Counted from the stretch's first letter, positions 6,945-30,979 are shown. The stretch is 30,979 nucleotides of DNA from Salinarchaeum sp. (GCA_041639835.1 JBEQBL010000001.1:1-30979); one strand, 5' to 3'. Notes: a model not told the origin generated them from the letters alone. Program-made: numbers and translations.

Positions 6945-6946
6945 CC

Positions 6947-10783: not shown

Positions 10784-10952
10784 ACTCACTGTTGGTCTGC
10801 TCTTCGGTTTTTGTGATCTCCAGCAGGTTGGCATCCTGTAACTAGTCCCCTGCTTTCAAGCAAAGACTGTCGACATACCAGTTGCTAGCATGTGATTTAG
10901 CGGTCCCCGGGTGCGGAATTAAGCCTCCCAGTGAACAGGTTCCACGCGGAGG

Positions 10953-13900: not shown

Positions 13901-14036
13901 ATGCATCCAGCGCACTCGCTGTGGTGTCGCCGTCGGTTCGACGCTGTTGGGTCGCTGTTTGGTCGGTGCGATTCGAGAGGATACCAAGACGTTCGGCAAG
14001 CCGTTCGATCCGGCTTGGTTCAAATTTGTTTCCCAT
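10953..14036 (-). CDS. Molybdopterin (DMSO-reductase family) oxidoreductase catalytic subunit, Psr/Phs/Sre/Soe-like, no Tat signal
   Basis: N-terminal 4Fe-4S motif CFNCEAGC...CAKG, SWDEAL, candidate Mo-ligand Cys in SHTNICSS, DPRLSNTA, and a C-terminal dinucleotide-binding domain (VWIHTKDAKRLGL). Confidence 0.9.
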   Translation of the reverse strand: MGNKFEPSRIERLAERLGILSNRTDQTATQQRRTDGDTTASALDAYPDPTAWDHWVEYDATGDPTEYSVVPTACFNCEAGCGLLAYIDKDSGEIQKLEGNPEHPGSRGRNCAKGVATINQINDPKRIKYPLKRDGPRGSGEWTRVSWDEALNAIAGEMRETIQDGRENEITYHVGRPGYDGSMDRTINGWGIDGHNSHTNICSSGARAGYALWHKYDRPSADYSNADFILLLSAQLESGHYFNPHAQRILDSMDEGGELAVMDPRLSNTAAVADYWMPTQPGSEAAVLLAMAKVLLDEGLYDAEFIRQWTNWEQFLDEEYPDIGHDLEAYIDILQEDIYSTFTPEYAAAESGVEASTIRKVGKKIGHAAPRYASHIWRSAASGNEGGWQVSRTLHFLSVLTGSVGTKGGTAPNSWHKYDPEVPREPPQQKLWDQLQLPDEYPFAHYEMSQLLPYFLKEGRGKLSVYFTRVFNPVYTYPDGFSWIEVLQDPDKVGLHVALTPTWNETAYFADYVLPMGHSPERHDLQSSETHAGTWVTFRQPVHRRYAEREGEDIDHTYEVNPGEVWEEDEFWLELSWRLDEDGSLGIREHFESPYQEDDEPPRRMSVDEYYRYIFEHDEQLQAVAADAGMEPLEYMKRYGAFEASKNDYTLHEESLDPSILDDEDVVVDEYGTIRRRTDRSVTTRGDPTVDTALQDGGTTQQNRLHSESDGSDVLGVMVDGEPKRGFPTPTGKQQFYSKTMAEWGWEDEQYTLPHYIKSHVHPENIDYENGEMVLVPTFRLPTHIHSRSSNAKYLEEISHNNPVWIHTKDAKRLGLDTGNLCRVETEIGYFVNEVWVTESIKPGIVAMSHHMGQWKIDRDEDPDSEIEEGGDPYGKVSVDLTSDGHKWGIRQTEGITPFESKTDPDSERVWWESGGVPQNLTHAPHPDPISGMHCWHQQVTVTPAREDDAYGDVFVDTDQSFEIYREWLEKTNPAPGPNGLRRPKWLKRPIKPTTDPGEDDAWYVDGPVGRPQRWDTETRTAHTDND

Positions 14037-14038
14037 AG

Positions 14039-15796: not shown

Positions 15797-16013
15797 CTCC
15801 GTTTGGGGGTATGGACCAAATATTTCTATACTATCACTTAATGGTTAGGTGGGCGGAAAGAGCGACCTCAAGTTTCACCCTGTCCACAAGTCAGGTAACA
15901 ACAGGACGCTGGTGCTCGCCGGTTATCGTCGTTCTTTACAACACTAATGCTGTAAGCAACAACAACCGACACGGCGAGTAACTTTAGCCGCTTGGGATGT
16001 GGTAATAGTGTGT

Positions 16014-16478
16014 ATGGCTCATTCACCAGACCTGTGCCCGGAGGCCAGACACCTCTTTGACGGCTCCCCACAGGTAGTCCGGGTCGCACTGGCGATTGAA
16101 ACAACGATACACGATGTTTCCCCAACCGGTGATGAGGAACTTGCATTAGCACTTGGTCGTGTCCGAGTCGATGGGGCCCCACCGCCATCGGAGGTGCCAA
16201 CATTTGTGTCCGTAACTGATAGGACAATCACAACCGATAATCCACCGTACCTTCGAGGAGAATGGACTGTTGATCCTGGCGAGACACTGCAGGTGACGGG
16301 ACAGCTGGATTCCGAACTGGAGTTGTTAATCGACCCTCCCGTCACAGTCTCGTTTAGTGGCGCTCCATCGTCAGTTATCGAAACGATTGAACGCACACTT
16401 GCAGACATCTACCGCACTCGCGGACGATATCTTGAGCAGATCGATGCCGATGTTGCCACTCCACGCGTGGACGACTAA
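16014..16478 (+). CDS. Hypothetical protein (154 aa)
   Basis: Acidic ORF filling the gap between the Mo-enzyme and shdr operons; family not recognised. Confidence 0.6.
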   Translation: MAHSPDLCPEARHLFDGSPQVVRVALAIETTIHDVSPTGDEELALALGRVRVDGAPPPSEVPTFVSVTDRTITTDNPPYLRGEWTVDPGETLQVTGQLDSELELLIDPPVTVSFSGAPSSVIETIERTLADIYRTRGRYLEQIDADVATPRVDD

Positions 16479-16765
16479 TTGGCCCGTATTTCACTCAGGT
16501 GATACAGGAGCTGATCAAACGCAATCATGGTCAGTTCCTCTTCGTATGACTCAACAAGCCGGGCTGCATCTGCCTGTGGCCGTGTAATGTGTTCGCTAAA
16601 CTGCTCTTCTGCACACTCCGGGCAATTCAGTGTAAACTGTACCGCGTTGCCGGTGTCCGTGTCTATAATTGATAGTGTTAGTTCGGACCGATGGTCCTCG
16701 AACAGATGCTCATGCATCGCTTGCCGGGGCTTTTCCACTGGACAGTATGGGCACGACAGCGTCAT
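16475..16765 (-). CDS. Small zinc-finger-like protein (CPYC...HxxxxH...CPEC), last gene of the shdr operon
   Basis: Two CPxC motifs, His pair, C-terminal IAFDQLLYHL. 2-nt gap to the previous gene. Confidence 0.75.
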   Translation of the reverse strand: MTLSCPYCPVEKPRQAMHEHLFEDHRSELTLSIIDTDTGNAVQFTLNCPECAEEQFSEHITRPQADAARLVESYEEELTMIAFDQLLYHLSEIRAN

Positions 16766-16767
16766 GG

Positions 16768-17235
16768 TTAGAGCTTGAACTGATACTCAACCTCGTGTTT
16801 GTGTTCCGTGGCAAGTTCTTCAACTCCTGCCTGAAGTTCCTGGATGGCAAGTTGATGAGCACTGAGCCGTTCCCGAACTGTTTCAATATCGTCCTGTTGT
16901 TCTTGTGTGATTCGCTGAACTGTCGTCTGCACTCGTTCAAGCCTCTCCTCAAGTCGTTCGAACAACGTCGCAAGTGGCAGGGTTTCCCCATCAATAGTGA
17001 CCACCGGCTGCTCATCTTCGACCGTTACCGTTGGTCCCGTTGTTCCAGCCAAGTCGCCGATGGTCAGATCATGAACCGTCTCCGCGATGGCCATCTCGTA
17101 TGCATCCCCGATACAGTCCTGATGCTCCTGATCGTCGACAGCATCAATATGATCGCTGACAGCAGCAACTGTCGTAAACAGTCGGCCATCAGTGTCGGCA
17201 AACCGGCCACACAGTGGGCACGTATATACCTGCAT
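16768..17235 (-). CDS. CPxCG zinc-finger plus coiled-coil protein
   Basis: CPLCG...HI...D..H N-terminus and heptad-rich acidic C-terminus. 6 nt downstream of shdrB3. Confidence 0.7.
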   Translation of the reverse strand: MQVYTCPLCGRFADTDGRLFTTVAAVSDHIDAVDDQEHQDCIGDAYEMAIAETVHDLTIGDLAGTTGPTVTVEDEQPVVTIDGETLPLATLFERLEERLERVQTTVQRITQEQQDDIETVRERLSAHQLAIQELQAGVEELATEHKHEVEYQFKL

Positions 17236-17241
17236 CGTTGA

Positions 17242-18567
17242 TTAGTGTGGATCGGCCATTGCTTCGGCCACCAGTTCAATGATATCACGAACGTCCATAT
17301 CAGCATCCACAGTTTTCATGGCATCCTCAAATCGGGAGACCTCATACGGACAACAGACCGCAAGCGTATCTGCTGGTGTTTGTTTGGCTTCCCGGGCACG
17401 GTTGTCTGACATTCGTTCATCCTGATAGTCACCGGCAAAGCCATCAAGCCACATCCCCCCGCCACCGCCACCACAGCAATAACTATCCTGGCGGTTACGC
17501 GGCATTTCAACAAACTCAACGCCTGGAATTGCTGATAAAATTGTACGGGGAGCTTCATATTCGTCGTTGTGGCGACCAAGATAACATGGATCATGGAAGG
17601 TTACGGTGCGATCAAGCGACTGTCCCCATTCAATCTCATCGATTCGGTCGGCCAGTACTTGCGTATAATGTGATACCTCCTCATCCCAGCCATCAAGGAC
17701 CGTCTCGTACTCATGACTCAGGGCATTCAGCGCATGTGGCCCTGAAACCAGCAGTTGATCGTGCTCATACTGCGTGATTGCGGTAGCGTTTTCTTGGGCA
17801 ACCATCTCGAAGAGCCCGGCCTCTCCGGCAAGACGTTGGGAGTCACCATCGGTCTGTTCCTGATGTCCAAGAATGCCGTAGTCGATATCCAAAGCGGTGA
17901 GTACCTGCGCCATTGCTTTGGCAGCATCCTGGCCTCGGTCATGGTATGACCAGAAGTCCCCGACAATCCAGAGATATTCAACGGGGTCCGGGTCTGACTC
18001 ACGAGGAAGGATCGGAACATCGACATCGGCCTGACGCGTCCATTTGGCGCGTTTCTTGCTTGACTCTCCCATCGTATTGCCGTTCTGAAACACGTTTTCA
18101 AACATGTCCTGCAACTCATCGGGAATATCCCCGTCAGCAACCCGCTGTTCGCGCACCTTCGGAATAATATCGGTCATATCAACGCCTTTCGGACAGACCC
18201 GCACGCAGTTGCGACAGGTTGTACACAGCCATGCATCCGGACTATCCTCAAGATCGATGCCCAGTTCTGTCCGCCGGTATACCTTTCGGGGGCCATATGC
18301 CCCGCCGGCCTGATCAACCGGACAGACGCCTACGCATTGTGCACACTGATAGCACCGGCCAAGTGTTTCGCCGCCATCAAGATCCATCACCTCCTCAATT
18401 TTCCCTGGATTAAAACTCTCAATTACCCGTTCGCCGTACATCCGATTCCAGTGGCCGGAGACATCAAGACCCTCAACTTCAACCGTATCCTCTTGAGTAA
18501 CGTCGCCAGTACTACCGTACCGGCCTTCTACTTCGCGTCGTTTCTGTTGATCCTGTGAGTGTGACAT
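17242..18567 (-). CDS. shdrB3: sHdrB3-like HdrC2/HdrB2 fusion (2x[4Fe-4S] plus CCG domains)
   Basis: CYQCAQCVGVCP, CTTCRNCVRVCP, FHDPCYLGRHN, SYCCGGGGG, VCCPY. Position directly after shdrH. Confidence 0.78.
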   Translation of the reverse strand: MSHSQDQQKRREVEGRYGSTGDVTQEDTVEVEGLDVSGHWNRMYGERVIESFNPGKIEEVMDLDGGETLGRCYQCAQCVGVCPVDQAGGAYGPRKVYRRTELGIDLEDSPDAWLCTTCRNCVRVCPKGVDMTDIIPKVREQRVADGDIPDELQDMFENVFQNGNTMGESSKKRAKWTRQADVDVPILPRESDPDPVEYLWIVGDFWSYHDRGQDAAKAMAQVLTALDIDYGILGHQEQTDGDSQRLAGEAGLFEMVAQENATAITQYEHDQLLVSGPHALNALSHEYETVLDGWDEEVSHYTQVLADRIDEIEWGQSLDRTVTFHDPCYLGRHNDEYEAPRTILSAIPGVEFVEMPRNRQDSYCCGGGGGGMWLDGFAGDYQDERMSDNRAREAKQTPADTLAVCCPYEVSRFEDAMKTVDADMDVRDIIELVAEAMADPH

Positions 18568-19439
18568 TAGAATCCCTCCATTGGAAGCTGTTGTGGGTGC
18601 GTATCGGTCGTCTGCGTTGGAACCCCAAGGAGCCGACGCACGTACTCCTCATGATCCGGAATCGCATCCGTAAACTGCTTTGTCAGACGCATCGCTAACA
18701 CGAGATAAACATACGCCGCGTGGACGACCGCCATTGCCACTGTCGTCCCGTGGGGGCCGTCCAGAGCTGTCGTATCAAGGCCAAACTCGTCCTTTCGAGT
18801 AGCAACGCGGTCAACAGCATCACAAACGCTTGTATACATGGCCCCAGGTGTAGCGCCATCAAGATGGACATCATTCATCGTCATAAGGGGAACTACTCCT
18901 GTATACGTATCCGGGTGCCACATCCAGCGGGCCCATAGACTCCATTGTTGTGGGTCGACCTGATAGAGAAATTCAGCGGCCACGCTTCGGATAACCTGTG
19001 TGTCAGCACCTTCGACGCGCTCACAGAAGGTATTAAATCGCGTTTCAACCGATGCTGTCTCATTGAGTAGGTCGGCAGTAGCCTGCGCAAACGACTGGAG
19101 ACCGGTTGTCTGTAGAATCTCATCGACATGACGACGACTCGCAAAAACCTGTGTCAGCACCGTCTCAGCCTGTTCGCGTGTGAGATGAGGAGCCATTGTG
19201 AGTGTGTCCTGCATCGTCGATTGTTTGTCGGCCAGGGCCTCACGAATGGCTACAAGCGTGGCCGTGTCTAAATGGGTTTGCTCTCTGAGTTGTTCGATAA
19301 ATTCCCGGATAGTTTCGATATCAACAACATCCTCACCATCTGAGTGAAAACGCAATCCCTCCTTGCTCAGTGCTGCTGCCTTTTGAGCACTTGGCTGTCC
19401 GGCATCGACAATATCCGGCTCGCTGTTAACTGGATGCAT
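18567..19439 (-). CDS. shdrH: sHdrH ('Hyp') subunit of the sHdr complex
   Basis: Sits between shdrA and the C2/B2 gene. AEFLYQVDP..W.LWARWMW...TYTG segment resembles sHdrH as recalled. TAATG overlaps on both sides. Confidence 0.72.
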   Translation of the reverse strand: MHPVNSEPDIVDAGQPSAQKAAALSKEGLRFHSDGEDVVDIETIREFIEQLREQTHLDTATLVAIREALADKQSTMQDTLTMAPHLTREQAETVLTQVFASRRHVDEILQTTGLQSFAQATADLLNETASVETRFNTFCERVEGADTQVIRSVAAEFLYQVDPQQWSLWARWMWHPDTYTGVVPLMTMNDVHLDGATPGAMYTSVCDAVDRVATRKDEFGLDTTALDGPHGTTVAMAVVHAAYVYLVLAMRLTKQFTDAIPDHEEYVRRLLGVPTQTTDTHPQQLPMEGF

Positions 19440-20518
19440 TATTGTCCTCCGTCGGTTGCGGCTTTAGCCGGAATGGCTCGGACATCCGCAACAGCTTTCG
19501 CGGCTGCTGATCCGGCCATACTCACGGTTGTTTCAAGATCTTGCGGGCCGGCGGCTGCCCCAGCAACATACACTCCATCCCGCTCGGTCTCAACAGTTTC
19601 CAGGGGCATGCCGACGGTCTCAAGATAGCCATGCTCTTCAAGTGGGAGATCAAAGACCTCTGCCATCTGGAGTGTGCCAGTTGATGGCTCCATACCGGTT
19701 GAGAGTACCACAACATCCATGGGAATCTCATACGGACGTCCCATCGTTGTGTCCTCGCCTTTGACAAGGACTTGATCGCCCTGCTTGGTGATTTCGGAGG
19801 CAATACCGCGGACATATCGGACGTTGTGCTCCTCCTGTGCTTCCCAGTATAGTTCGTCCTCCCAGAACCCGTAGGTGCGGATGTCAATATAAAAGACCAT
19901 GATGGTTGCGTCGGGGTGCAGCTCCGCGATTTCTGTTGCCTCCTTTGAGGCAACCCCACAGCAGACCTTTGAACACCACTGATTGCCGATCTGTCGGTCC
20001 CGGGACCCCACGCATTGAATAAATCCGATCGTCTCTGGTGCTTCCCCGGTTGAGGGCCGGACAAACTGCCCATCACTGAGCATGTCCTCGGCATCAGGTA
20101 GTGTGATTACATCCTCAAACTGACTGTAATTGTACATTTGCGTCTCGTTTGTCGGGTCAAAATGGTCAAATCCGGTTGCAATGATCACCGACCCGGCGTC
20201 GACGGTTGTCTGCTCGTTCCCGCCATTTCTGGAGACTGTCAGCGTGAAATCACCAACACTGCCGGCTGCATCAACAACCTCGGCATCAGTGAGCAACTCG
20301 ATATGGTCGTGAGTGCGGAATTTCTCTAAGATCGGCTCCATCAACGCTTCTGTCTCCTTTCGCTCCGGTGTCAATGCAGCATAGTTGGCTTCATACGGTG
20401 TCCCACCGATTTCGGGTCGTTTTTCGATAACGATCGTTTCACTGCCGAGATCGGCGGCGCTGATTGCCGCCTTGAGTCCGGCAGGACCGGCTCCAATGAT
20501 TGCAATTGTGTCGTTCAT
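19439..20518 (-). CDS. shdrA: sHdrA, short FAD/[4Fe-4S] HdrA-like subunit
   Basis: GAGPAG Rossmann motif, IIATGF, QCVGSRD...WCSKVCC, DIRTYG. Only 359 aa, lacking the ferredoxin insert of methanogen HdrA. Confidence 0.9.
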   Translation of the reverse strand: MNDTIAIIGAGPAGLKAAISAADLGSETIVIEKRPEIGGTPYEANYAALTPERKETEALMEPILEKFRTHDHIELLTDAEVVDAAGSVGDFTLTVSRNGGNEQTTVDAGSVIIATGFDHFDPTNETQMYNYSQFEDVITLPDAEDMLSDGQFVRPSTGEAPETIGFIQCVGSRDRQIGNQWCSKVCCGVASKEATEIAELHPDATIMVFYIDIRTYGFWEDELYWEAQEEHNVRYVRGIASEITKQGDQVLVKGEDTTMGRPYEIPMDVVVLSTGMEPSTGTLQMAEVFDLPLEEHGYLETVGMPLETVETERDGVYVAGAAAGPQDLETTVSMAGSAAAKAVADVRAIPAKAATDGGQ

Positions 20519-20569
20519 AGTTTTGTGGATATCCTGATTGGATGGGTGGTTACTGTGCGATACATCGAG

Positions 20570-21733
20570 TTAGACATCATCCCATGTGATGTACTCCTTG
20601 TCACCATTCTCAATGGCATCAACGTCAGCTTCGAATTCAGCCCAGGCTTGTTCGTGATCGATCCCCATTTTCTCAAGCAGGGGTTCATAATCGGTCTTAT
20701 GCCAGTGTAACTGACAGACCTTGTACGGATGAGCCCCCATCGCCAGTGCCGCAAACTGCGCCTCGGACATTACCGGAATTCCCACGTCACGGTCATGAAC
20801 TTCGCCAGTTACCCACTGACTTGAATCAAGCGTCGTGACACAACCGGTATCATGAGTGATTGTCACATCCGGGTCAGCCTCATCTTTCATGCGCTCGATC
20901 TTTCGCTGGGTGGCGAATGACCGCGAGAAGTCACGTTCGACGAGGATATGCCGAAAGCCAAACCCACAGCAGTCATACCACGTTGAGTAATCAGCCACGT
21001 CGACACCGATTTCCTCAAGCAGTGCCGTGACGGTGGCCATCCGTTCGCCCCCATAAATCTCCGGATCATAAATGGCATCATCCTCGATAATTTTATGATA
21101 GTGACAGGCCGGATGGACGGTTGCTCTGATATCCGTCAGATCATATTCCAGATTGGCCGCAATCTCCTCACGAACAGCATGAGTCCATTCACTGTAATGG
21201 ACAATCTCCTCGGGGATGACAAGTTCATGCCCGAGTCGATCAAGGACCTCTCGGGCCTCCTCACGGACGGAGTCATGGCTCACAACCTGCTCGCGCACCT
21301 CCTTGTAGTGGCCAAAACTGGTGCCACAGTGAATCAGTGGATAATATCCGTCCTTTTTTGCTTGCCCGAAGTTCCGAAGGGCAACCCCAGCCTGGGCGGC
21401 TTCATTCGAAGTCGCACTGGCATAGAAGTTCCAGCCAGTACAGGAGGTCTGATCCTTGGGATCATAATAGTCATATCCAAGCTTGCGGTGCAACCAGAAA
21501 ATCGAGGTTGAGTAGCCGGGAATATGCCCACACTGTCCACAGGACTTGTGATGCCATGTACCCTCAAGTGGAATCTTCTTTGTTCGCCCGTCTTTGCGGG
21601 TCACTTCGCGGTACGGCTCTGGCACTTCAAGCATCTCAACTTCACCGGCAGCGTCTAACTCCCGAAGTTTTTCGCGTACATCGTGTTTGTGCTCTCCACG
21701 ATGCGATACCGTTGGTGGTGATGACTCTGACAT
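20570..21733 (-). CDS. shdrB1: sHdrB1, CCG-domain subunit
   Basis: WHHKSCGQCGHIPGY, DQTSCTGW, HCGTSFG, HPACHY, WYDCCGFGFRH, HDTGC. Confidence 0.9.
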   Translation of the reverse strand: MSESSPPTVSHRGEHKHDVREKLRELDAAGEVEMLEVPEPYREVTRKDGRTKKIPLEGTWHHKSCGQCGHIPGYSTSIFWLHRKLGYDYYDPKDQTSCTGWNFYASATSNEAAQAGVALRNFGQAKKDGYYPLIHCGTSFGHYKEVREQVVSHDSVREEAREVLDRLGHELVIPEEIVHYSEWTHAVREEIAANLEYDLTDIRATVHPACHYHKIIEDDAIYDPEIYGGERMATVTALLEEIGVDVADYSTWYDCCGFGFRHILVERDFSRSFATQRKIERMKDEADPDVTITHDTGCVTTLDSSQWVTGEVHDRDVGIPVMSEAQFAALAMGAHPYKVCQLHWHKTDYEPLLEKMGIDHEQAWAEFEADVDAIENGDKEYITWDDV

Positions 21734-21735
21734 AC

Positions 21736-22518
21736 TTAGTCACCTGCCTCAAATTCCGCTAATCGATCGTCGATCATGTCTGCAAGGATCATATGAATGC
21801 CCGGATCAATATCCTCGATTAGCTCCAAGACATCGGTTTCCTCCCAGATGACAAACAATTCTGTGACGGTGCGATCCGAGACATCCCATGCACGACCGGT
21901 GGTGTGTAATGTTTCCGGTGGGATTGCTCGGCGCCATTCCTCCATATTTTCAGCCTCCTTCCGGGCCTCCGGTCCCCAGTCCGGAAACGCATCCGGGGTG
22001 ATCATATCGGGAGATACCTGTGTCCCGGTCGACATGATCTTATAAATCACCCGTTCATACCCCTCAAGGGCATCCTGTGCACTATCAAGGCTTGCGTCAA
22101 CGGCCTTCTCACGCATGATCATAATCAATCCGCCAGGGGAGTTTTGCCGAGGGCAGCGCGTACAGGAATAACATTGCGAGCAGTTCCAGATGTCCTCATT
22201 GAGCTGTTCGAAAAAGAGGTCAACGTCCTCCCGGTAGATCGACTGGGCGATGCGGCGTGGGCTGAAGTCATAAAACCGCGCTGAGGGACAAGCCGATACA
22301 CAGACGCCACACCCATAGCAGGCGAAAATGGCCTCGTCGTGCCGGATATCCTCAGTCACCTCCTCGAATAACGCCTCCTTGTCTTCATGATCCCAGTCGT
22401 CGTAGGCCGTCTCATACATCGAGCCATGGGCCTTCCGCTGCTCCATCGCTTCCGGAGTGCGTGTGACCTCCGTCACTTGTTGTCGGTCCGCTGTCGGTAG
22501 TTCTTGTGCGTCTGACAT
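21736..22518 (-). CDS. shdrC1: sHdrC1, 2x[4Fe-4S] subunit
   Basis: CYGCGVCVSACP and CSQCYSCTRCP, FPDWGP. First gene of the operon, start trimmed to ATG 22518. Confidence 0.88.
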   Translation of the reverse strand: MSDAQELPTADRQQVTEVTRTPEAMEQRKAHGSMYETAYDDWDHEDKEALFEEVTEDIRHDEAIFACYGCGVCVSACPSARFYDFSPRRIAQSIYREDVDLFFEQLNEDIWNCSQCYSCTRCPRQNSPGGLIMIMREKAVDASLDSAQDALEGYERVIYKIMSTGTQVSPDMITPDAFPDWGPEARKEAENMEEWRRAIPPETLHTTGRAWDVSDRTVTELFVIWEETDVLELIEDIDPGIHMILADMIDDRLAEFEAGD

Positions 22519-22726
22519 TGCTACAGTCCGCGGAAATCGGTTTGCAAACGATGCACCAGGCTGTCGTGATTGTTGCCTGTCATATGGTCTATTCAACGAT
22601 GCGTATAAAGCTTCGCCTGGCGGAATACAAGCGTTTCATACTGTTTGGCCGCCTATTTATATTCGGTGTCCGGTTGACCGGTTACCCAAGTTATTTTACT
22701 TGTTACTAACAGAAACGCAACCTACA

Positions 22727-24877
22727 ATGCCTATCCCCAGTCGTATCGACGCGATTGTTCTTGAGACGGTAACGCGTGATGTCTTTGCCGAGTTGACTCC
22801 TCTGATGGAGGGTATTTTCTATCTCGCTGCCGCTGGCTCTATTCTTGCCTTTCTTATCGGTGTGCGACGACGAATTCAGCGATACCGCCGTGGGCAGGGA
22901 GATCCGGACCGGCTAACAGCCCTCCCATCACGGATCATCGCCGGCACACAATCCGTTCTCTCAGGACGTACCATCTTTAACAATAATCCCTACGCGGGTG
23001 TTATGCATATGCTGGTGCTTTGGGGGTTTTTAGCGCTGTTTGTTGCGACAACAATCCTGCTTATTGAGGTTGATATTCTGATGCCCGCGAGTGGTCCGAT
23101 CAAATATCTCTTCGAGGCGGTTGGGCTGACGGAACTGACCGCGGCCGAAGGCACGCGGGTGTTCTGGGAGGGATCATTCTACCTGCTCTATCAGCTTGCC
23201 GTGGATGTTTTTGGACTTTTGTTCGTCCTTGGTGTTGGCCTGGCATTGTTTCGACGCGTTGCTCTTGATGTGCCCCGTCTTGACCTCTCGCGGGTCGACG
23301 ATGTTGACGATGATCGCCGTCGCTGGCGGCTTGATGACTGGGCCTTTCTTGGCTTTCTACTGGCAATCGGTATCACTGGTTTCCTGATTGAGGGCATCCG
23401 GCTTGCGGTTGACCAGCCGGCATGGGCATGGCCATGGAATCCTGTTGGGGCACCCCTCGCAACAGCTCTTGAGACTGTATACTGGGGCTCACTTGCTGAG
23501 ACATATGCGACAGTCTGGTGGATCCATGCACTGATCGCGCTTGGCTTTGTGGCGTATCTCCCGTATTCAAAGGCCGTCCATATGCTCACAGGTGGTGTCA
23601 GTTTAGCCTTACATGATTCCGCTGCCGGCCGCCGACTCCCAACAGTCCCAGACGACACCGCGCCGGAGGCTCAGGGGTACACCGATGTTGAGGATTTCTC
23701 CTGGAAGCATTTGCTTGAGGCCGATGCCTGCACGAAATGTGGACGCTGTCATTCGGTGTGTCCCGCCCGTAATGCCGGCACAGACCTGTCACCTCGGGAT
23801 CTCATCCTTGACATGCGCAAGGAATTGGCGACTGATGGGGGCACAGTGACCAATGAGACAGTCAGTAGCGATCGACTATGGGCGTGTACGACCTGTCGAT
23901 CTTGTATCGAGGTGTGCCCGGTCGGGATCGAACATGTACCGCAGATTGTGCAGATGCGTCGCTCACTTATTGAGGATGGTGAGTTAGACAGCAATCTCCA
24001 AGGGACGTTAATGGATCTCATGCAGCGGGAGAACTCCTTCGGTGAATCAGGGAAGAAGCGTGCGATGTGGTCTCGCGAACTTGATTTCAAGCCGCCGGAT
24101 GCCCGCCGCGAGTCCGTCGAGTATCTGTGGTTTGTCGGCGACTATGCGTCCTATCATGATACTGGCAAGCCCCGTGCCCGGACTCTTGCTCGGCTGTTTG
24201 AGGCTGCTGATCTTGACTGGGGGATTCTGTATGAGGATGAGGTCAATGCGGGCAATGATGTACGACGCGTTGGTGAGGAAGGCCTCTTTGAGATGCTTGC
24301 TGAGAAAAATGTTGAGACGCTTGATCAGTGTGACTACGAACAGATTGTCACAACGGATCCACATGTATTGAATACCCTTCGGAACGAGTACCCGGATCTT
24401 GATTTTGAAGCTGATGTTATTCATTATACAACACTTCTGCGGGAGTTACTTGCGGAGGGGACCATTGAGCTTGCTGGTGAACTCGACGGCACTGTCACCT
24501 ACCATGATCCGTGTTATCTTGGTCGGTACAACCGTGTCTTTGAGGCGCCGCGTGAGCTTATCACCGCAACAGGTGTCGACCTCCAGGAGATGGACCGGAA
24601 CAAGGCTGACTCCTTCTGCTGTGGGGCCGGTGGCGGACGGATCTATATGGATACCTCCGATGTTGAGACCCGACCCAGTGTCATGCGTATTGACGAAGCG
24701 CTTGAGATCGATGATCTTGATTACTTTGTCGTCGCCTGCCCGAAGGATATGGCAATGTATACGGATGCTGTCAAGTCCTTCGACGAGGAACTTGCGGTTG
24801 TTGACATCCTTGACCTACTGGCGGCCGATATGACAACTCCAGATCTGGATGACAACGGAGTGATCCCTCGCTCCTGA
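22727..24877 (+). CDS. Membrane Fe-S/CCG oxidoreductase (EMO/HdrF/FadF-like; probable ETF:menaquinone oxidoreductase)
   Basis: NarI/HdrE-like TM region with His residues (MHMLV, WWIHAL, KAVHML), CTKCGRCHSVCP, CTTCRSCIEVCP, YHDPCYLGR, CCGAGGG. Start trimmed to ATG 22727. Confidence 0.85.
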   Translation: MPIPSRIDAIVLETVTRDVFAELTPLMEGIFYLAAAGSILAFLIGVRRRIQRYRRGQGDPDRLTALPSRIIAGTQSVLSGRTIFNNNPYAGVMHMLVLWGFLALFVATTILLIEVDILMPASGPIKYLFEAVGLTELTAAEGTRVFWEGSFYLLYQLAVDVFGLLFVLGVGLALFRRVALDVPRLDLSRVDDVDDDRRRWRLDDWAFLGFLLAIGITGFLIEGIRLAVDQPAWAWPWNPVGAPLATALETVYWGSLAETYATVWWIHALIALGFVAYLPYSKAVHMLTGGVSLALHDSAAGRRLPTVPDDTAPEAQGYTDVEDFSWKHLLEADACTKCGRCHSVCPARNAGTDLSPRDLILDMRKELATDGGTVTNETVSSDRLWACTTCRSCIEVCPVGIEHVPQIVQMRRSLIEDGELDSNLQGTLMDLMQRENSFGESGKKRAMWSRELDFKPPDARRESVEYLWFVGDYASYHDTGKPRARTLARLFEAADLDWGILYEDEVNAGNDVRRVGEEGLFEMLAEKNVETLDQCDYEQIVTTDPHVLNTLRNEYPDLDFEADVIHYTTLLRELLAEGTIELAGELDGTVTYHDPCYLGRYNRVFEAPRELITATGVDLQEMDRNKADSFCCGAGGGRIYMDTSDVETRPSVMRIDEALEIDDLDYFVVACPKDMAMYTDAVKSFDEELAVVDILDLLAADMTTPDLDDNGVIPRS

Positions 24878-24957
24878 TCTTGTCTTCGGGATCTCAGTTC
24901 GACATCCCCTGATTGTGAGGGAGAGTGCTTAGTCCCGTAGCGCCGGTATCACACAAT

Positions 24958-26028
24958 ATGCCAGCCGCACAGTTTATCGACTTTGGCCACACAGATCCGG
25001 CGACAAGCCAGGCGGTGTACCACGGACTTGCTGCGACGCTTGCCCCACCGGCCAACCCCATTGTCGATGTCGTAACGCCGACCGACCAGTATGTGTGCAT
25101 TGGAGCTCATCAAGACTTTGCCAAAGCCGTTGACCGGGAGGCAATCGATCGTCATGACCTACCGGTGTACCGTCGCCATGTCGGTGGGGGAACAGTCTTG
25201 CTGGATGCGGATCAACTGTTCTGGCATTTTATTCTTCCGGCATCGAAGTGCCCGGCCCCTAACACGTTGTTCCAACGCTATCTCCAGCCGGTCATTGACA
25301 CGTTTCAGGCCCTTGGAATCGACGCACAATACGATCCGGTTAATGATATCGTCGTTGGCGATCAAAAAATCGCCGGGACTGGGGCTGGTCGTATTGACGA
25401 TGCGATTATGATTGTTGGCTCATTCATGTTTGATTTCGATATTGAGACGATGGTCTCGGTGACTCCAACACCATCACCTGAGTTCGAACAAGCCTTTCGT
25501 CAGGGACTTCGGACGAATATGACGACAATTAGTGAGCAGTTGACTTCTGTCCCGGACCGTACAACTATCTTGCAGCAGTTTCAGGAGACGCTTGCCGACC
25601 AACTTGACTGGACTCTGACTCCAACCACCCCAACAGATGAACAGCAGTCGGCCATTGATACGTATCGTGACACATTAGCTGATCCTGACTGGCTTGCACG
25701 AACTGGCTTGGCCTCGGGACGGAGTCGTCGCAAACTCAAAGCGAAGACCCATCTCGCTGAGGGTCAATGTGAGACCCCCGGTGGAATAGTCAATGCAACG
25801 GTGCTCACAGCCGAGGAAGTCATTGATGATCTACTTCTCACAGGTGATTTGCAGGTGTTCCCCAAGTCAGGGCTTGCACAGCTTGCGACTGATCTCATTG
25901 GCTGTCCGGTTGTCCGTGAGCAGTTGGAAGCAATGATCGACGAGAGTCTTCAGCGTCATGAGATTGTCTGCCCGGGAGTCGAACCAGCAGATATCGCAAC
26001 GGCCATTCTTCGGGCTACCGCCGCGTAA
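24958..26028 (+). CDS. lplA: Lipoate-protein ligase with fused C-terminal domain (sLpl(AB)-like)
   Basis: VCIGAHQ, RRHVGGGTVLLD, PVNDI....KIAGTG, and a C-terminal LplB-like region (PGGIV...LTGD). Confidence 0.85.
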   Translation: MPAAQFIDFGHTDPATSQAVYHGLAATLAPPANPIVDVVTPTDQYVCIGAHQDFAKAVDREAIDRHDLPVYRRHVGGGTVLLDADQLFWHFILPASKCPAPNTLFQRYLQPVIDTFQALGIDAQYDPVNDIVVGDQKIAGTGAGRIDDAIMIVGSFMFDFDIETMVSVTPTPSPEFEQAFRQGLRTNMTTISEQLTSVPDRTTILQQFQETLADQLDWTLTPTTPTDEQQSAIDTYRDTLADPDWLARTGLASGRSRRKLKAKTHLAEGQCETPGGIVNATVLTAEEVIDDLLLTGDLQVFPKSGLAQLATDLIGCPVVREQLEAMIDESLQRHEIVCPGVEPADIATAILRATAA

Positions 26029-26052
26029 GTACACCCGGTTTAGGCGATCACA

Positions 26053-26604
26053 TTAATCGAGCCATGAGCCGTTCTGGGCATCGAGGTCGGTGTCAAACAC
26101 AATATTGAACGTATGATAACCACGCATAAGTGACACGAAATGAACAAGTTGGACGAGTGCTTGTTCATTAAGGCCATGCTCGCGGAGATGATGAATATCT
26201 GTCCTGGTAACCGCGTGTGGCGCCGTATTAACCGTGACCGCAAAGTCAATAATTGCCTGCCGTCGGGCGGTAAACTCATACTGGCGCCAGTCCTCGCGAA
26301 TCTGTGCGACCCCCTCAGTGGAGATTGTATGCTCTGCGAGTAACGCCGCATGATAGTGCTGACAGTACTCACACTCAATTTCAACAGCCAGCACAAGCGC
26401 GATAATCTCAAGCGTCTCAGGAGCGAGTTGACCGGCAAGCAGAATCCGGCGGTTAAGATCAAGGAGACTCCGTAGTAGTAACGGAAAGTGGGCCTCTAAG
26501 CGGTGCTGGTTTGGGACAAGTCCATGAATATCCGCAATCTGCTCGAATAAGTCCTCTACATCCGAGTCAATTGCCGATTCCGGGGGCGGATCAATTCGAC
26601 TCAT
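26053..26604 (-). CDS. AhpD/carboxymuconolactone decarboxylase family peroxidase-related protein
   Basis: CEYCQHYH (CxxCxxxH), G.L...T.E.IAL, and the LREHGL...LV.LV pattern. Confidence 0.82.
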   Translation of the reverse strand: MSRIDPPPESAIDSDVEDLFEQIADIHGLVPNQHRLEAHFPLLLRSLLDLNRRILLAGQLAPETLEIIALVLAVEIECEYCQHYHAALLAEHTISTEGVAQIREDWRQYEFTARRQAIIDFAVTVNTAPHAVTRTDIHHLREHGLNEQALVQLVHFVSLMRGYHTFNIVFDTDLDAQNGSWLD

Positions 26605-26667
26605 TGGCTAAGCCACCTCCGTGTAACCATCGTAGCGCACTAAGCAGCATCGCTTTTTATCGTCGTT

Positions 26668-27033
26668 TCAGACACGCGATTCAGGTGCGTCGGGGACCTC
26701 CTCCGTGATCGCCTCGCTGACACGTCCAGTGAGATCCTCAACAACGCCCAGATACCCCTCCGTTAGGACCGTTGCTTGGATACCATCTCCGTCTAGTGAT
26801 CTGGATAGTAGCCCCACTTGCACAAGGTCATTGACACGCTCGCTTAGCGTTGCCTTTGTTAGCCCGATGTCGGCCGCCAGGTCATCAATTGTCAGTGGTC
26901 CATCAGCATGCACAGTTTGGAGCAGCCAGTAATTAATCGGGTCCGCCCCCCGACGAATGACACGTAGGGTAAACTCTCGAACCGCCTCCTCACGCACGGT
27001 CTCGTCTTCAACAAGTTTGGCAGTCCACGTCAT
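26668..27033 (-). CDS. Winged-HTH protein (MarR/ArsR-like; possibly sHdrI-like)
   Basis: GPLTIDDLAADIGLTKATLSERVNDLVQVGLL helix-turn-helix. Start at ATG 27033 overlaps the upstream ORF stop. Confidence 0.75.
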   Translation of the reverse strand: MTWTAKLVEDETVREEAVREFTLRVIRRGADPINYWLLQTVHADGPLTIDDLAADIGLTKATLSERVNDLVQVGLLSRSLDGDGIQATVLTEGYLGVVEDLTGRVSEAITEEVPDAPESRV

Positions 27034-27227
27034 TGCTCGGGGTTCACACCACACTGGCTGGAATCCTGCATAACATTTGTCGGACGCTCAGCATCGACCT
27101 GCCAGACAACCGCATCGCGTCGGTCGACAGTACGGGCGATTTCAGTGAATCGGCGAACGATGCCCTCAGCCATCTTTGCATGATCTGTGGCTGCTGTCTG
27201 GTCGTGTGATTTCTCAGAGTCAGTCAT
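27030..27227 (-). CDS. Small hypothetical protein (65 aa)
   Basis: ATGA overlap with the HTH gene; no family recognised. Confidence 0.45.
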   Translation of the reverse strand: MTDSEKSHDQTAATDHAKMAEGIVRRFTEIARTVDRRDAVVWQVDAERPTNVMQDSSQCGVNPEQ

Positions 27228-27409
27228 GATAGCGTCTACACTATGGTAGGTCAGACCAAGGCATTAAATGGCAGTGTTTCGGTATTTTGGCCGCTACCGA
27301 TCATCCTGGGTCTGCTACTCATCTCGGATACTCGATGTTCATTCCACTCCGTCGGGTGCCGGGATGTTAGCGATACCTGCGGTATCCGGATGTTATCGAG
27401 CAACGGGCA

Positions 27410-28630
27410 TTAGACCCGTCGGAGGACCGTTGCAATTCCCTGTCCAAAGCCAATGCCCATTGTTGAAAGGGCATATGTCCCATGGCCACGATGTAACTCG
27501 TGTGCTAGCTTGCCGATCATCATCGCCCCTGTCGCACCAAGTGGATGGCCATGAGCAATCGCTCCGCCGAGTGTATTGACCCGTTCAATGGAAACTCCAG
27601 TTTCAACAAGCCACGCAGCAAGGACCGCTGCAAAGGCTTCATTGACCTCAAACAAGTCAATCTCAGCGAGATCGAGCTCCGTTGTTCCAAGGACCGACTC
27701 AGTTGCTGGGATTGGTCCTTTGCCCATGTCATTTGGATGGGTGCCGACAGTATCGGTCGCGATTATCTCTGCCATGGGCTCCCAGTTGTACTTCGCCGCG
27801 GTTCGACGCGTTGTGATAATCGTGGCCGCGGCCCCATCAACAATGCCTGAGGAGTTTCCGGCATGATGCACTCCATTGCCGGGATCACGAAACGCAAGCG
27901 GCAGTTCGCCAAGTGCCTCCACATCGGTTTCCGGACGTGGGTGCTCATCGGTCTCAAGATAAATATGCTCACCCTCAAGGGTCGTCTCAATGGGCACAAT
28001 CTGATCATCGTATCGGCCCATCTCCCAGGCCCGTTGCCAGCGTCGTTGAGAGCGAACCGCCAGTTGATCAAGTTCACGACGGGTAAAACCATACTCAGCC
28101 GCCAGTCGCTCAGCTGCCTCGCCTTGCTCGATGATTTCATCATAGTGGTTGAAATATGTCTCTGACACGGCATGCCGATCAAGATAGCCATCCTTGGCGG
28201 CTCCATCCGAGCCCATCGGGACACGGGTCATATGTTCCACCCCTCCAGCGATCACGATATCAGCCTCCCCGGCTGCAACTGTTCGGGTGGCCATCGCAAC
28301 AGCTTCCTGACCAGCACCACAGAGCCGATTGACGTGCACTCCGGGGACATGATCACCAAGTCCGGCGGTGAGTGCCGCCAACCGACCAATATTAAGCCCT
28401 TGATCGTCGACCGGGGTGACACAACCGTAGATCACATCATCGATATCCCGTGGTCTAAGCCCATTTCGCTCCGCAAGTGCCTGGAGGGGTATCGCAGCAA
28501 GATCCTGTGCATGTAACTCGCGTAAGCTTCCCTCAAAGGCACCAAATGGTGTTCGTGCTGCATCAACGATCACCGGCTGTCGAGGCATGCCATCCGACAC
28601 TGCCGTGTTTGCTGCCGTATGTTCTGACAT
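27410..28630 (-). CDS. Thiolase-family protein with a non-canonical C-terminal catalytic motif
   Basis: RTPFG, NRLCGAG (nucleophile Cys), NEAF and GHPLGATG are present. The C-terminal motif reads TMGIGFGQG instead of TMCIGxGQG. Confidence 0.88.
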   Translation of the reverse strand: MSEHTAANTAVSDGMPRQPVIVDAARTPFGAFEGSLRELHAQDLAAIPLQALAERNGLRPRDIDDVIYGCVTPVDDQGLNIGRLAALTAGLGDHVPGVHVNRLCGAGQEAVAMATRTVAAGEADIVIAGGVEHMTRVPMGSDGAAKDGYLDRHAVSETYFNHYDEIIEQGEAAERLAAEYGFTRRELDQLAVRSQRRWQRAWEMGRYDDQIVPIETTLEGEHIYLETDEHPRPETDVEALGELPLAFRDPGNGVHHAGNSSGIVDGAAATIITTRRTAAKYNWEPMAEIIATDTVGTHPNDMGKGPIPATESVLGTTELDLAEIDLFEVNEAFAAVLAAWLVETGVSIERVNTLGGAIAHGHPLGATGAMMIGKLAHELHRGHGTYALSTMGIGFGQGIATVLRRV

Positions 28631-28632
28631 GC

Positions 28633-29505
28633 TTATCGTCCTGTTGTCCCATCCGGGATTGCAAGCGGGGTTGGAACGCCCTTTGCCGTGATTGTTTCAC
28701 CAGTCATAAACGACGATGCCGGACTCGCAAGAAACTGCGCGATATCAGCGATCTCTGCTGGAGTGCCAATTCGCCGGTTGGGATCGGTTCGATCAAGATC
28801 CACAGTCACATCCATAACCTGCTCAATCCCGGGCGTGTCAACAAATCCCGGTGAGATACAGTTGACTCGAACCCCGCGCTCAGACCACTCCGTCGCCAAA
28901 CTGGTTGTGAGATTCATCACTCCAGCCTTGGCGGCGCCATAGGGGCTGATATATTCCGCTCCTACCTCGCCTGCTAGACTCGCGATGTTAATTACCGACC
29001 CCCCACCGGCGGCAAGGGACTCAGCGGCGGCCTGCGTTGGATGAAACACCCCATCAAGATTAATTTCAACAAGTGTTCGCCAGCCCTTGTAACTGAGATC
29101 CTCAAAGGCCTCTTGGAACATGCCACCAACATTGTTGACAAGCACATCAAGCCCGCCAAATTCGTCCATTGCGGTTGCAACCACACGGTCAACGGCTTCG
29201 CGGTTTCGAACATCACATTCGACGGCTACAGCGGTCCCCGGCGACTCGGTAGTGTTGATCGTCTCCGCAACCGGATCAATTCGATCTGCCGCTCGAGAAC
29301 AGATAACAACGTCAGCGCCTGCTGCAGTAAACCGTTCAGCGATTGTCCGGCCGATGCCACGTGAGGCACCGGTGATGATAGCGGTTTTACCGGCAATGCC
29401 AAACCGCTGGGCAGTTACACTCTCCGTGGATGGTGTGTTCTTGTGGTGGGGATGGTTCTCGGTCGATCCAAATGTCGTATCGTGGTGATCGCTCTCTGAG
29501 TTCAT
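28633..29505 (-). CDS. SDR family NAD(P)-dependent oxidoreductase (FabG-like)
   Basis: TGASRGIG, NNVGG, YGAAK (YxxxK), VNCISPG. Confidence 0.92.
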   Translation of the reverse strand: MNSESDHHDTTFGSTENHPHHKNTPSTESVTAQRFGIAGKTAIITGASRGIGRTIAERFTAAGADVVICSRAADRIDPVAETINTTESPGTAVAVECDVRNREAVDRVVATAMDEFGGLDVLVNNVGGMFQEAFEDLSYKGWRTLVEINLDGVFHPTQAAAESLAAGGGSVINIASLAGEVGAEYISPYGAAKAGVMNLTTSLATEWSERGVRVNCISPGFVDTPGIEQVMDVTVDLDRTDPNRRIGTPAEIADIAQFLASPASSFMTGETITAKGVPTPLAIPDGTTGR

Positions 29506-29587
29506 GACTCTCGATGCGAGACTGCTGATCTGAGTGAATTACACAACTAGTGTTGTAAAGTACTGGTGCCACGTGATGGGATGCGAG

Positions 29588-30169
29588 TCAGATGAGTAAC
29601 TGAATATCGGCATCAGCCATCTCATCAATGGCAGCGGCTGCGCCAACGCCGGTGGTGACCCCATCATAGAAGTCATCGTCCGCATATCCCATCAACTCCT
29701 GTGTCATCTGACAGGCCTGTATTTCTACGCCAGCCTCAAGACAGGTATCAACCAGTTCATTCACACTTGCCGTTCCGACATCGTCGATCTGCCGGTTCAT
29801 CATCCATGTGGTCATCCGATCCATCCCCGGCAGGATGGCGATGATATTGGGGACCGGCATGGCTGGCTGTCCGGTTGAACTCATTTTGAGATTATCCATT
29901 TTCTCTTCGTGCAAGATATCAAGCGCCCAGAACGTGTGAAAAAGCGTTACGTTCCAGCCAAAGGCTGCCGCCGTCGATGCGAGAATCAGTGGGGGATAGG
30001 CCATATCAAGGGTCCCCTTGGTCGCGATAATCGACATCTTTGATACATCGTTGTCGACGGTCTCCCGCAAGTCGGCAACCTCTTCACGGAGTTGCTTGAC
30101 CTCCGCCTCAAGATCGGCGATTTGCTGGGGACTGTACTCCGGGTCAGGGGTGGCTGTCTCTGAACTCAT
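29588..30169 (-). CDS. dsrE2: DsrE2-like sulfur-relay protein with N-terminal coiled coil
   Basis: TKGTLDMAYPPLILASTAAA, FHTFWAL, ACQMT (conserved Cys). Start trimmed to ATG 30169. Confidence 0.82.
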   Translation of the reverse strand: MSSETATPDPEYSPQQIADLEAEVKQLREEVADLRETVDNDVSKMSIIATKGTLDMAYPPLILASTAAAFGWNVTLFHTFWALDILHEEKMDNLKMSSTGQPAMPVPNIIAILPGMDRMTTWMMNRQIDDVGTASVNELVDTCLEAGVEIQACQMTQELMGYADDDFYDGVTTGVGAAAAIDEMADADIQLLI

Positions 30170-30368
30170 CGTTGGATGCGCTACCGGAGCGAGATTGACA
30201 TGACTCGCCCTGCAGTGTACCCTATCACCCACATACCAACGGTAAAAAGTTTGTGACATGAGAACATTTCTGGGGGTACCGGCTACCAAATCACCCGTCT
30301 AAGCCGGCGGAACCTCCGGTCGACGAAAGCTTGATTAGGGTTTGTGATTGTTAGACATGTGACGTACG

Positions 30369-30611
30369 ATGTCAGTTGAAGTCACAGCCGACCGTACGCT
30401 TGATGCAACCGGACTGACCTGTCCGATGCCCGTTGTACAGACAAAATCGGAGCTGGATGAGCTTAAAGACGGTGAGGTACTTGAGATTCTTGCAACAGAC
30501 CCCGGTGCTGAGGAGGATATTCCGGCGTTAGCATCCCGGACCGGAAATGAGTTTCTCGGTGTTGAAGATCGTGATGAGACATTGGCCTTGTACCTCCGAC
30601 GTACCGACTGA
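30369..30611 (+). CDS. tusA: TusA family sulfurtransferase
   Basis: LDATGLTCPMP (CPxP motif), LEILATDPG..EDI, 80 aa. Confidence 0.92.
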   Translation: MSVEVTADRTLDATGLTCPMPVVQTKSELDELKDGEVLEILATDPGAEEDIPALASRTGNEFLGVEDRDETLALYLRRTD

Positions 30612-30680
30612 GGCGTTGCTAGGGGACGGTTATGCGCTTATCAGCAATGAAGAGCTGTTAATCAGTACGTCCTGACAACC

Positions 30681-30698
30681 GGACACTACGCTGTGTCC
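30681..30698. terminator. Hairpin between convergent tusA and etfA (GGACAC-TACGCT-GTGTCC)
   Basis: 6-bp inverted repeat just past the etfA stop. No strong T-tract, so function is uncertain. Confidence 0.25.
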
Positions 30699-30700
30699 AG

Positions 30701-30979
30701 TCAGACCTTTTCTTGCATCGCCGGCAGCACCTCGAAGAGGTCATGCGGGATGCCATAGTCGGCATAGTCGAAAATCGGTGCCTCGGCGTCGTTGTTGATT
30801 GCGACGATCGTCTCCGCATCCTCCATTCCTTCAAGATGCTCCGGTGCGCCACTGATGCCAGCCGCAATATACAGTTCCGGATCGACCTTCTGTCCAGATT
30901 TACCGACCTGCCGACTCTTCGGCAACCAGCCGTTGTCGATCAGAGGCCGGGACATTGCAAGTTCTACGCCGATTGACTC
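30701..30979 (-). CDS. etfA: Electron transfer flavoprotein alpha subunit, 3' end (truncated by window edge)
   Basis: SRPLID.GW, RQVGKSGQKV.P.LYIA.GISGA..H..GM, AINND.EAPIF FAD-binding motifs. Confidence 0.93.
   Translation of the reverse strand, partial: ESIGVELAMSRPLIDNGWLPKSRQVGKSGQKVDPELYIAAGISGAPEHLEGMEDAETIVAINNDAEAPIFDYADYGIPHDLFEVLPAMQEKV

Follow-up and report, generated by a model that had tools for sequence, protein, structure and literature searches.

The window analysed here is a whole contig of 30,979 bp (C1) in a metagenome-assembled genome (MAG) of Salinarchaeum sp. (GCA_041639835.1, here G000; 294 contigs, 1.98 Mb, 54.7% GC, 82.6% completeness), and its right-hand stretch, from position 22727 to the contig end, carries genes of the electron-transfer flavoprotein ETF and of the membrane protein EMO amid genes for sulfur carriers and acyl-CoA enzymes. 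This stretch is a haloarchaeal type II sHdr system, the right half of an island type already described in bacteria. Genes were called with Pfam and NCBIfam scans; the genomes compared include two sister MAGs (G401 and G402) and a complete genome of the same family (G154). The emo gene (22727-24877, plus strand) encodes a protein of 716 aa that begins with a membrane domain and also has two 4Fe-4S motifs and a CCG domain. The gene is divergent from the adjoining shdrC1, with which the shdrC1-B1-A-H-B3 core begins directly to the left in the same island (17242-22596, minus strand; identified by domain content). At the opposite end lie a DsrE2-type sulfur carrier (29588-30259, minus; PF13686, NF047629), a TusA sulfur carrier (30369-30611, plus; PF01206, E 7e-26) and the C-terminal 92 aa of EtfA (30701-30979, minus; PF00766), whose gene is cut by the contig end. 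In between stand an SDR and a thiolase gene. An earlier reading made from the sequence alone (the sequence-only reading) had described EMO-like, thiolase-like, SDR and etfA genes as interleaved with sulfur-relay genes, and the domain scans confirm it; because two independent assemblies of the same species, L100 (a 90.5-kb contig with 99.86% DNA identity to the window) and L101, show an identical gene order, the interleaving is real and not due to misassembly.

The island continues beyond the window. A second contig of the MAG (C49) ends in etfB and the N-terminal 223 residues of EtfA, at a distance of only 8 nt from C1; L100 spans the junction, and both halves of etfA are contiguous in the relative G401. 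A direct overlap between the two contig ends was sought and not found, and the join rests on G401 and L100. This right flank contains an SMC-like gene, the group lbpA-lipS1-slpl-lipS2, a third lplA paralogue and the group dsrE3-lbpA2-etfB-etfA. On C49 and L100, both LbpAs are GcvH-like and both LipS genes are of the radical-SAM kind, and slpl and a DsrE3-like gene are present as well. The sequence-only reading had proposed that ETF and EMO form a hub shared between sHdr and acyl-CoA genes, and had left three models side by side: (a) electrons passing from sHdr through ETF and EMO to quinone, (b) electrons of acyl-CoA passing through ETF to sHdr, and (c) catabolism of an organosulfur acyl-CoA that feeds its sulfur to sHdr. 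Of the genes that were expected on the right flank under models (b) and (c), etfB is present, but neither an acyl-CoA dehydrogenase nor a CoA ligase occurs in the flank recovered on C49 and L100.

One contiguous locus unites shdrC1B1AHB3, etfBA, emo, two lbpA, lipS1, slpl, lipS2, tusA and dsrE genes. It belongs to type II sHdr as defined by shdrC1B1AH, a fused C2/B2-like B3, etfAB and emo, the presence of etfAB in the cluster being a criterion (PMC11094781, section 5.8). Gene order is the same as in Chloroflexota type II clusters, to which C1, B1, A and B3 are 51-68% identical and H about 24-34%. Relatives of the window EMO, searched in one genome per species, were found at 24 loci, two of them in Salinarchaeum sp. 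MAGs (76-77% identity) and 22 in Chloroflexota, Thermomicrobiota or Bacillota (34-49%). The more complete bacterial loci read tusA-dsrE2 ... shdrC1-B1-A-H-B3-etfB-etfA-emo-MarR-small ORF (open reading frame) ... lplA. As in the window, emo is followed by an lplA gene in bacterial type II clusters; the LplA-like lipoate-protein ligase of the window (24958-26028, plus; PF21948, TIGR00545) is 34-37% identical to its bacterial counterparts. A thiolase or SDR of the window kind was seen in none of the 22 bacterial loci.

Core genes and their order are thus shared with the type II clusters of Sulfobacillus, Chloroflexota and Actinobacteriota (Cao 2018; Justice 2014; Kümpel 2024, via PMC11094781), which likewise enclose etfBA and emo together with LbpA, lipoate-assembly genes, TusA/DsrE and a MarR-like gene, and several of which also hold a molybdenum (Mo) enzyme. 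The window island differs from them in its haloarchaeal host, which apparently has no terminal oxidases, in the rearrangement of its operons into divergent units, and in several additional features, namely an AhpD-like protein, a third LplA paralogue, a pair of palindromes and a variable acyl-CoA cassette. With the type I system of Hyphomicrobium denitrificans the island has in common sHdrA, B1, C1, LbpA and the logic of its sulfur transferases, whereas type I has sHdrC2 and B2 in place of the fused B3 and does without ETF and EMO.

Among haloarchaea, a search of 400 other sampled Halobacteria genomes for sHdrB3 retrieved EMO-like ORFs as best matches, mostly of about 700 aa and 38-45% identical. 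Since no true sHdrB3 orthologue was seen among these 400 genomes, the type II island is rare in haloarchaea and was probably acquired horizontally by a Salinarchaeum-like haloarchaeon. The dsrE2 orthologues of the other haloarchaeal islands share 69-83% identity with that of the window. No paper linking haloarchaea to sHdr turned up in literature searches, and PMC11094781 names Thermoplasmatota as the sole archaeal phylum with type II sHdr.

The product of 22727-24877 has the architecture of an EMO, a protein of about 700 aa in which a membrane domain of five helices is combined with two 4Fe-4S motifs of the cubane type and a CCG domain of the non-cubane type. Five hydrophobic segments can be read from the N-terminal sequence of the window protein, Fer4 and CCG domains are recognised, and the protein matches PDB 9ojn_A, an 'iron-sulfur-binding reductase' (E 5.3e-75), which is probably the mycobacterial EMO to judge from the title and length of the entry. 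The EMOs of Syntrophus aciditrophicus and of mycobacteria similarly have about 700 aa with five-helix membrane, two-cubane and CCG domains and lie next to etfBA (PMC8805022; bioRxiv 10.64898/2026.08.18.745454). In these systems, the electron donors are the acyl-CoA dehydrogenases of beta-oxidation, whereas none is found nearby in the window and the neighbours are sHdr subunits.

The host possesses other copies of both components. In a tree of EMOs, those of the islands (the window and two Salinarchaeum MAGs) form a clade of their own, apart from 31 native haloarchaeal EMOs that include the second EMO of this genome, located on contig C189, where its neighbours are an IclR regulator and a CoA ligase. 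Three etfBA pairs are present in the genome, on C43, on C57 and in the island. The pair on C43 adjoins an enoyl-CoA hydratase, a methylmalonyl-CoA mutase and both acyl-CoA dehydrogenases of the genome, the only two retrieved by a genome search with PF00441. No acyl-CoA dehydrogenase occurs in the islands L100, L106, L113 and L114. In the EtfB tree, a branch with 95% support has the EtfBs of the window, G401 and six bacterial island-linked loci on one side, and the C43 EtfB groups at 100% with the native EtfB of G154, both separate from the island EtfBs. A thiolase catalyses no redox reaction and a classical SDR works with NAD(P), and neither gives electrons to ETF; the enzyme that reduces ETF is acyl-CoA dehydrogenase. 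The shared hub therefore finds no support: ETF and EMO have separate paralogues for acyl-CoA oxidation on C43 and C189, the island and its flank lack an acyl-CoA dehydrogenase, and the thiolase and SDR are no donors to ETF. EtfBA and EMO are dedicated components of the island and not a junction with fatty-acid oxidation.

The third etfBA pair directly follows a dimethylglycine/sarcosine-dehydrogenase-like gene on C57 (L098:844-5135) and looks like a dedicated ETF for betaine catabolism. EMO-like genes were also recorded in 353 of the 400 other sampled Halobacteria genomes, and EMO seems to be the usual haloarchaeal link between ETF and quinone. One native locus of G154 (L072; G154:C1:1936000-1955999) reads etfB-etfA-thiolase ... 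EMO, the thiolase having its cysteine. Such native loci resemble the window in that a thiolase of the same family is found in the neighbourhood of ETF and EMO; in G154 and on C43 and C189, however, the ETF and EMO paralogues are different ones, the thiolases have the catalytic Cys and sulfur genes are missing.

The two acyl-CoA genes lie on the minus strand. The thiolase (27410-28630; Thiolase_N/C; TIGR01930 at 420 bits) is preceded by a classical SDR (28633-29505; adh_short) with intact TGASRGIG and YGAAK motifs, which is probably a 3-hydroxyacyl-CoA dehydrogenase or a 3-oxoacyl-CoA reductase. The SDR stop overlaps the thiolase start, and the two genes are predicted to be translationally coupled. 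Both proteins are of haloarchaeal type: homologues of the thiolase, at up to 65% identity, occur in 28 of 150 other sampled genomes, and the SDR comes from a family that is very widespread in haloarchaea. No compositional break was visible at the cassette in the GC profile. The thiolase retains its nucleophile Cys (RLCGAG) and the GHP motif, and has a Gly in place of the catalytic acid/base Cys (STMGIGFGQG), a position occupied by Cys in all 27 other haloarchaeal thiolase homologues. The Gly variant is also found in L100, in L101, in L102 (85% identity; 10873-12099) and in L104 (72%; 7149-8324), and the window and L102 genes differ by 192 synonymous and 65 non-synonymous codons, which places the subfamily under purifying selection. 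These other assemblies, the L102 and L104 copies and the 192:65 ratio of codon differences rule out that the Gly stems from a sequencing error or marks a recent loss of function.

In the window, L102 and L104, the Gly-variant thiolase is always paired with the same SDR subfamily, and the four SDRs of the window, L102, L104 and G402 form a clade with 100% SH-aLRT support among 120 haloarchaeal SDRs. At the other haloarchaeal thiolase homologues inspected (G154 and 24 further loci), no co-directional SDR-thiolase pair was found; the only SDR at seven of those loci is divergent, lies on the opposite strand and shares about 31% identity. In L102, the neighbours of the pair are an enoyl-CoA hydratase, a CoA ligase and a FAS-II-like gene set; in L104, they are a CoA ligase, a thioesterase and 2-hydroxyacyl-CoA-dehydratase-like genes. 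Sulfur genes are missing from both contexts. The FAS-II-like set, which is of bacterial type and comprises a ketoacyl synthase, an ACP, an acyltransferase, a phosphopantetheinyl transferase, a ketoreductase and a Zn-ADH-type reductase, is a haloarchaeal observation in its own right (C240, C266; L102:1839-6534, beside the cassette).

Synteny around this site was compared across five haloarchaeal island lineages. In the window species, dsrE2 is followed by a palindrome, the SDR, the thiolase, a 65-aa ORF (27030-27227), the MarR-like regulator (26668-27033; MarR/HTH matches) that this ORF precedes, and an AhpD/CMD-like CxxC protein (CMD; 26053-26604; PF02627, TIGR01926), these last three on the minus strand; the 65-aa ORF and the MarR-like gene are called in L100, L113 and L114 as well. 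In the second lineage (G402), the order is dsrE2, palindrome, an SDR 67% identical to that of the window, an enoyl-CoA hydratase on the opposite strand, a CoA ligase, a 62-aa ORF, MarR and CMD, as deduced from contigs C131, L106 and L008 joined by exact 55-nt overlaps and as found in two further independent assemblies. The third (G401, with an exact contig overlap of 127 nt) passes from dsrE2 and the palindrome to the 65-aa ORF and MarR without any cassette. No cassette is found either in the fourth, represented by an uninterrupted 139-kb contig (L113), or in the fifth (L114/L115), which is arranged differently and whose island encloses, between lplA and CMD, a blue copper protein of the halocyanin-like kind (L114:7979-8590); this protein hints at an oxidative electron chain in that lineage.

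The idea that an occupied site is peculiar to the window species is refuted by the SDR, hydratase and ligase of G402 at the same place; hydratase and CoA ligase, for their part, are not in the island of the window species and only the G402 lineage has them. Since G401 and G402 are 95.9% identical across the island and yet differ at this site, the acyl-CoA genes are a variable accessory at one hot spot, and the island can do without them. At each of the two occupied sites, however, the first gene is an SDR from one and the same small clade, and this speaks against a purely random cargo. The sequence-only reading had made models (b) and (c) depend on synteny of the acyl-CoA genes with shdr in other genomes. 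Such synteny is present in the window and in G402, and absent from 20 bacterial type II clusters and three of the five haloarchaeal lineages.

The palindrome (consensus TTACAACACTAGTGTTGTAA) has two copies genome-wide at <=3 mismatches, zero being expected by chance. One (15936-15955) lies 140 nt upstream of the Mo-enzyme operon; the other, a 20-nt element assigned to neither strand (29539-29558), lies between the dsrE2 stop and the SDR start, 33 nt before the latter. Both positions are kept in G401 and G402, and L113 also keeps the copy next to dsrE2; in G402 that copy precedes the SDR start by 2 nt. Because it is absent upstream of the SDRs of L102 and L104, which stand outside any island, the palindrome belongs to the island and not to the cassette. 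It is likely an operator of the MarR-like or another regulator. Downstream of the cassette, the unit formed by the 65-aa ORF, MarR and CMD is headed by a conserved TTTAAT promoter region of its own, which aligns with the corresponding region of G401.

Several further components deserve mention. Downstream of shdrB3 lie two small zinc-ribbon ORFs of 96 and 155 aa (16475-17235); counterparts 28-33% identical to the 96-aa protein follow the MarR gene in most Chloroflexota type II clusters, and it may represent an unrecognised conserved component of the island. The AhpD/CMD-like protein is kept in all five haloarchaeal lineages and was not detected in the bacterial clusters. As AhpD-type proteins work with lipoamide, it could act on LbpA. 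In addition to two LbpA genes, the island contains three LplA-like paralogues, that of the window and two others (L031:4441-5478 and 6621-7610), more ligases than the published slpl/lipS1/lipS2 scheme needs.

To the left of the sHdr core, the window encodes a Soe-like Mo oxidoreductase with a fused FeS/NrfD subunit (10953-15796, minus strand; identified by domain content). As its N-terminus has no Tat motif, the enzyme is predicted to face the cytoplasm, like SoeABC-type sulfite dehydrogenases. The FeS/NrfD and Mo-subunit genes are syntenic with shdr in L018 and L021, and the Mo subunit also in L011, L022 and L023. NCBIfam gave sub-threshold matches to the DMSO-reductase family only. In the cytoplasmic sulfite dehydrogenases of the SoeABC or PSRLC3 type, too, a Tat-less Mo subunit of about 1000 aa is combined with an FeS subunit holding four clusters and with an anchor of the NrfD type, and the genes adjoin others for sulfur oxidation; the window enzyme is unlike SoeABC in that its FeS and NrfD subunits are fused, and the likeness is one of domains and context.

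From these elements, a pathway can be proposed, in which the direction of electron flow and the chemistry are inferred from the published model and the gene context. TusA and DsrE proteins would deliver sulfur to lipoylated LbpA, and the sHdr complex would oxidise the protein-bound sulfane sulfur to sulfite. The electrons released would run from sHdr to EtfBA, EMO and menaquinone, and the adjacent cytoplasm-facing Mo enzyme would oxidise the resulting sulfite. Acyl-CoA oxidation would run through its own ETF, beside the two acyl-CoA dehydrogenases, and its own EMO, while the SDR-thiolase pair would be a variable two-gene acyl-CoA cassette, set at a hot spot downstream of the palindrome and no client of the island ETF. 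Of the three models left side by side by the sequence-only reading, it is model (a) that fits best: it coincides with the published type II model, and a Soe-like Mo enzyme stands beside the island. Oxidation is favoured by homology and synteny with the clusters of known sulfur oxidisers, by the lipoate-LbpA machinery and by the Tat-less Mo enzyme. We regard this oxidative model, with a dedicated ETF/EMO and no shared hub, as the best explanation and hold it to be rather more probable than its negation.

A number of observations weigh against it. A search for haem-copper oxidases (PF00115) and cytochrome bd (PF01654), which was positive for the control Haloferax and recovered a cytochrome bd in G161, a member of the same family, found neither of them in this MAG (82.6% complete), in G401 and G402 or in the complete G154; this suggests an anaerobic lineage carrying a sulfur-oxidation island. 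The SDR, hydratase and CoA ligase of G402 occupy the same site as the pair of the window, and a co-regulation of the cassette with the island is possible in view of the palindrome position. To our knowledge, type II systems have so far yielded no biochemical data. ETF and EMO furthermore operate in both directions in Syntrophus (PMC8805022). The caution of the sequence-only reading about direction was thus well founded, on account of the apparent lack of terminal oxidases in the host and not of the acyl-CoA genes.

The most serious alternative, though an unlikely one, is a reverse operation in an anaerobe, in which menaquinol, reduced for instance via formate dehydrogenase, would pass electrons through EMO and ETF to sHdr and a cytoplasmic sulfur compound would be reduced, a sulfur analogue of enoyl-CoA respiration. 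It would agree with the missing oxidases in all four related genomes, with the reversibility seen in Syntrophus and with the equipment of the host. Three formate-dehydrogenase (FdhA-like) fragments are present in the genome, and on contig C226 (L112:224-3432) an NrfD-like gene precedes that of a Ttr/Psr-like Mo subunit, which has a clear Tat signal (SRREFAK) and would be exported. The frame of the latter is broken by a stop near 2820; its 64% identical orthologue in the oxidase-less G154 is an uninterrupted frame of about 1200 aa. On the other side, the island retains LbpA and the lipoate-assembly genes, marks of the oxidative pathway, one sister lineage has the halocyanin-like protein inside its island, and the MAGs are incomplete. 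The sulfate/sulfite couple, moreover, lies far below menaquinol in redox potential, and a cytoplasm-facing Soe-like enzyme is therefore sensible only for sulfite oxidation. Quite unlikely, and slightly more so, is a composite scheme for oxidase-less haloarchaea of the sulfur-respiring type, in which sHdr, ETF, EMO and the Soe-like enzyme would be an oxidising branch, menaquinol would be reoxidised by the outward-facing Ttr/Psr-like reductase, the net process would be an anaerobic sulfur oxidation or disproportionation, and the SDR-led cassettes, under the palindromic operator of the island, would be an accessory substrate supply.

Two further explanations, which we judge improbable to the same degree, concern the cassette. 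According to model (c) in a broad sense, the SDR-led cassettes would process an organosulfur or otherwise special acyl-CoA, and its sulfur, or an octanoyl product for the lipoylation of LbpA, would serve the island. The occurrence of one SDR subfamily at one and the same site in two lineages, each time with other acyl-CoA partners, the position directly downstream of an island-specific palindrome, the maintenance by purifying selection of a Gly-for-Cys thiolase that may have an unusual activity, and the three LplA paralogues with two LbpAs all speak for it. However, the cassette is missing from three haloarchaeal lineages and all bacterial clusters and is dispensable between the near-identical islands of G401 and G402, its close homologues sit in ordinary acyl-CoA contexts with neither sulfur genes nor palindrome, and a desulfurising enzyme is not evident. 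Neutral hitch-hiking would instead make the palindrome region a recombination hot spot, and the cassettes functionally unrelated to the island. Presence or absence indeed varies between near-identical islands, the G401 and G402 assemblies break at this very site and the contents vary by lineage, but that both cassettes start with an SDR of one small clade would be unlikely for random cargo.

Model (b), with electrons of acyl-CoA passing through the island ETF to sHdr, possibly by bifurcation, is highly improbable: acyl-CoA genes do occur inside the island in two of the five haloarchaeal lineages, and the island EtfB motif GVQSAEDRDGQLAP, at the site where a bifurcating (group 2) ETF has a second FAD in place of AMP, is intermediate between bifurcating and non-bifurcating types, with a Q-L-A-P stretch at the position of Q-V-G-P in the bifurcating ETF 5ol2. 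Yet none of the islands seen has an acyl-CoA dehydrogenase, and according to textbook biochemistry ETF is reduced neither by thiolase or SDR nor by hydratase or CoA ligase. The acyl-CoA dehydrogenases of this genome, moreover, are provided with a separate ETF on C43, and among solved structures the island EtfB is closest to the Methylophilus ETF 1o94, which is non-bifurcating (E 9.5e-24, versus 1.3e-14 for 5ol2).

Under the oxidative model, the ETF/EMO beside sHdr is a dedicated and co-inherited output wire of type II sulfur oxidation. Because it is dedicated to sHdr, a coupling to beta-oxidation should not be inferred when such islands are annotated. The finding extends type II sHdr to haloarchaea, Thermoplasmatota having been the sole archaeal phylum given until now in the papers searched, and it raises the puzzle of a sulfur-oxidation island in organisms seemingly unable to respire oxygen.

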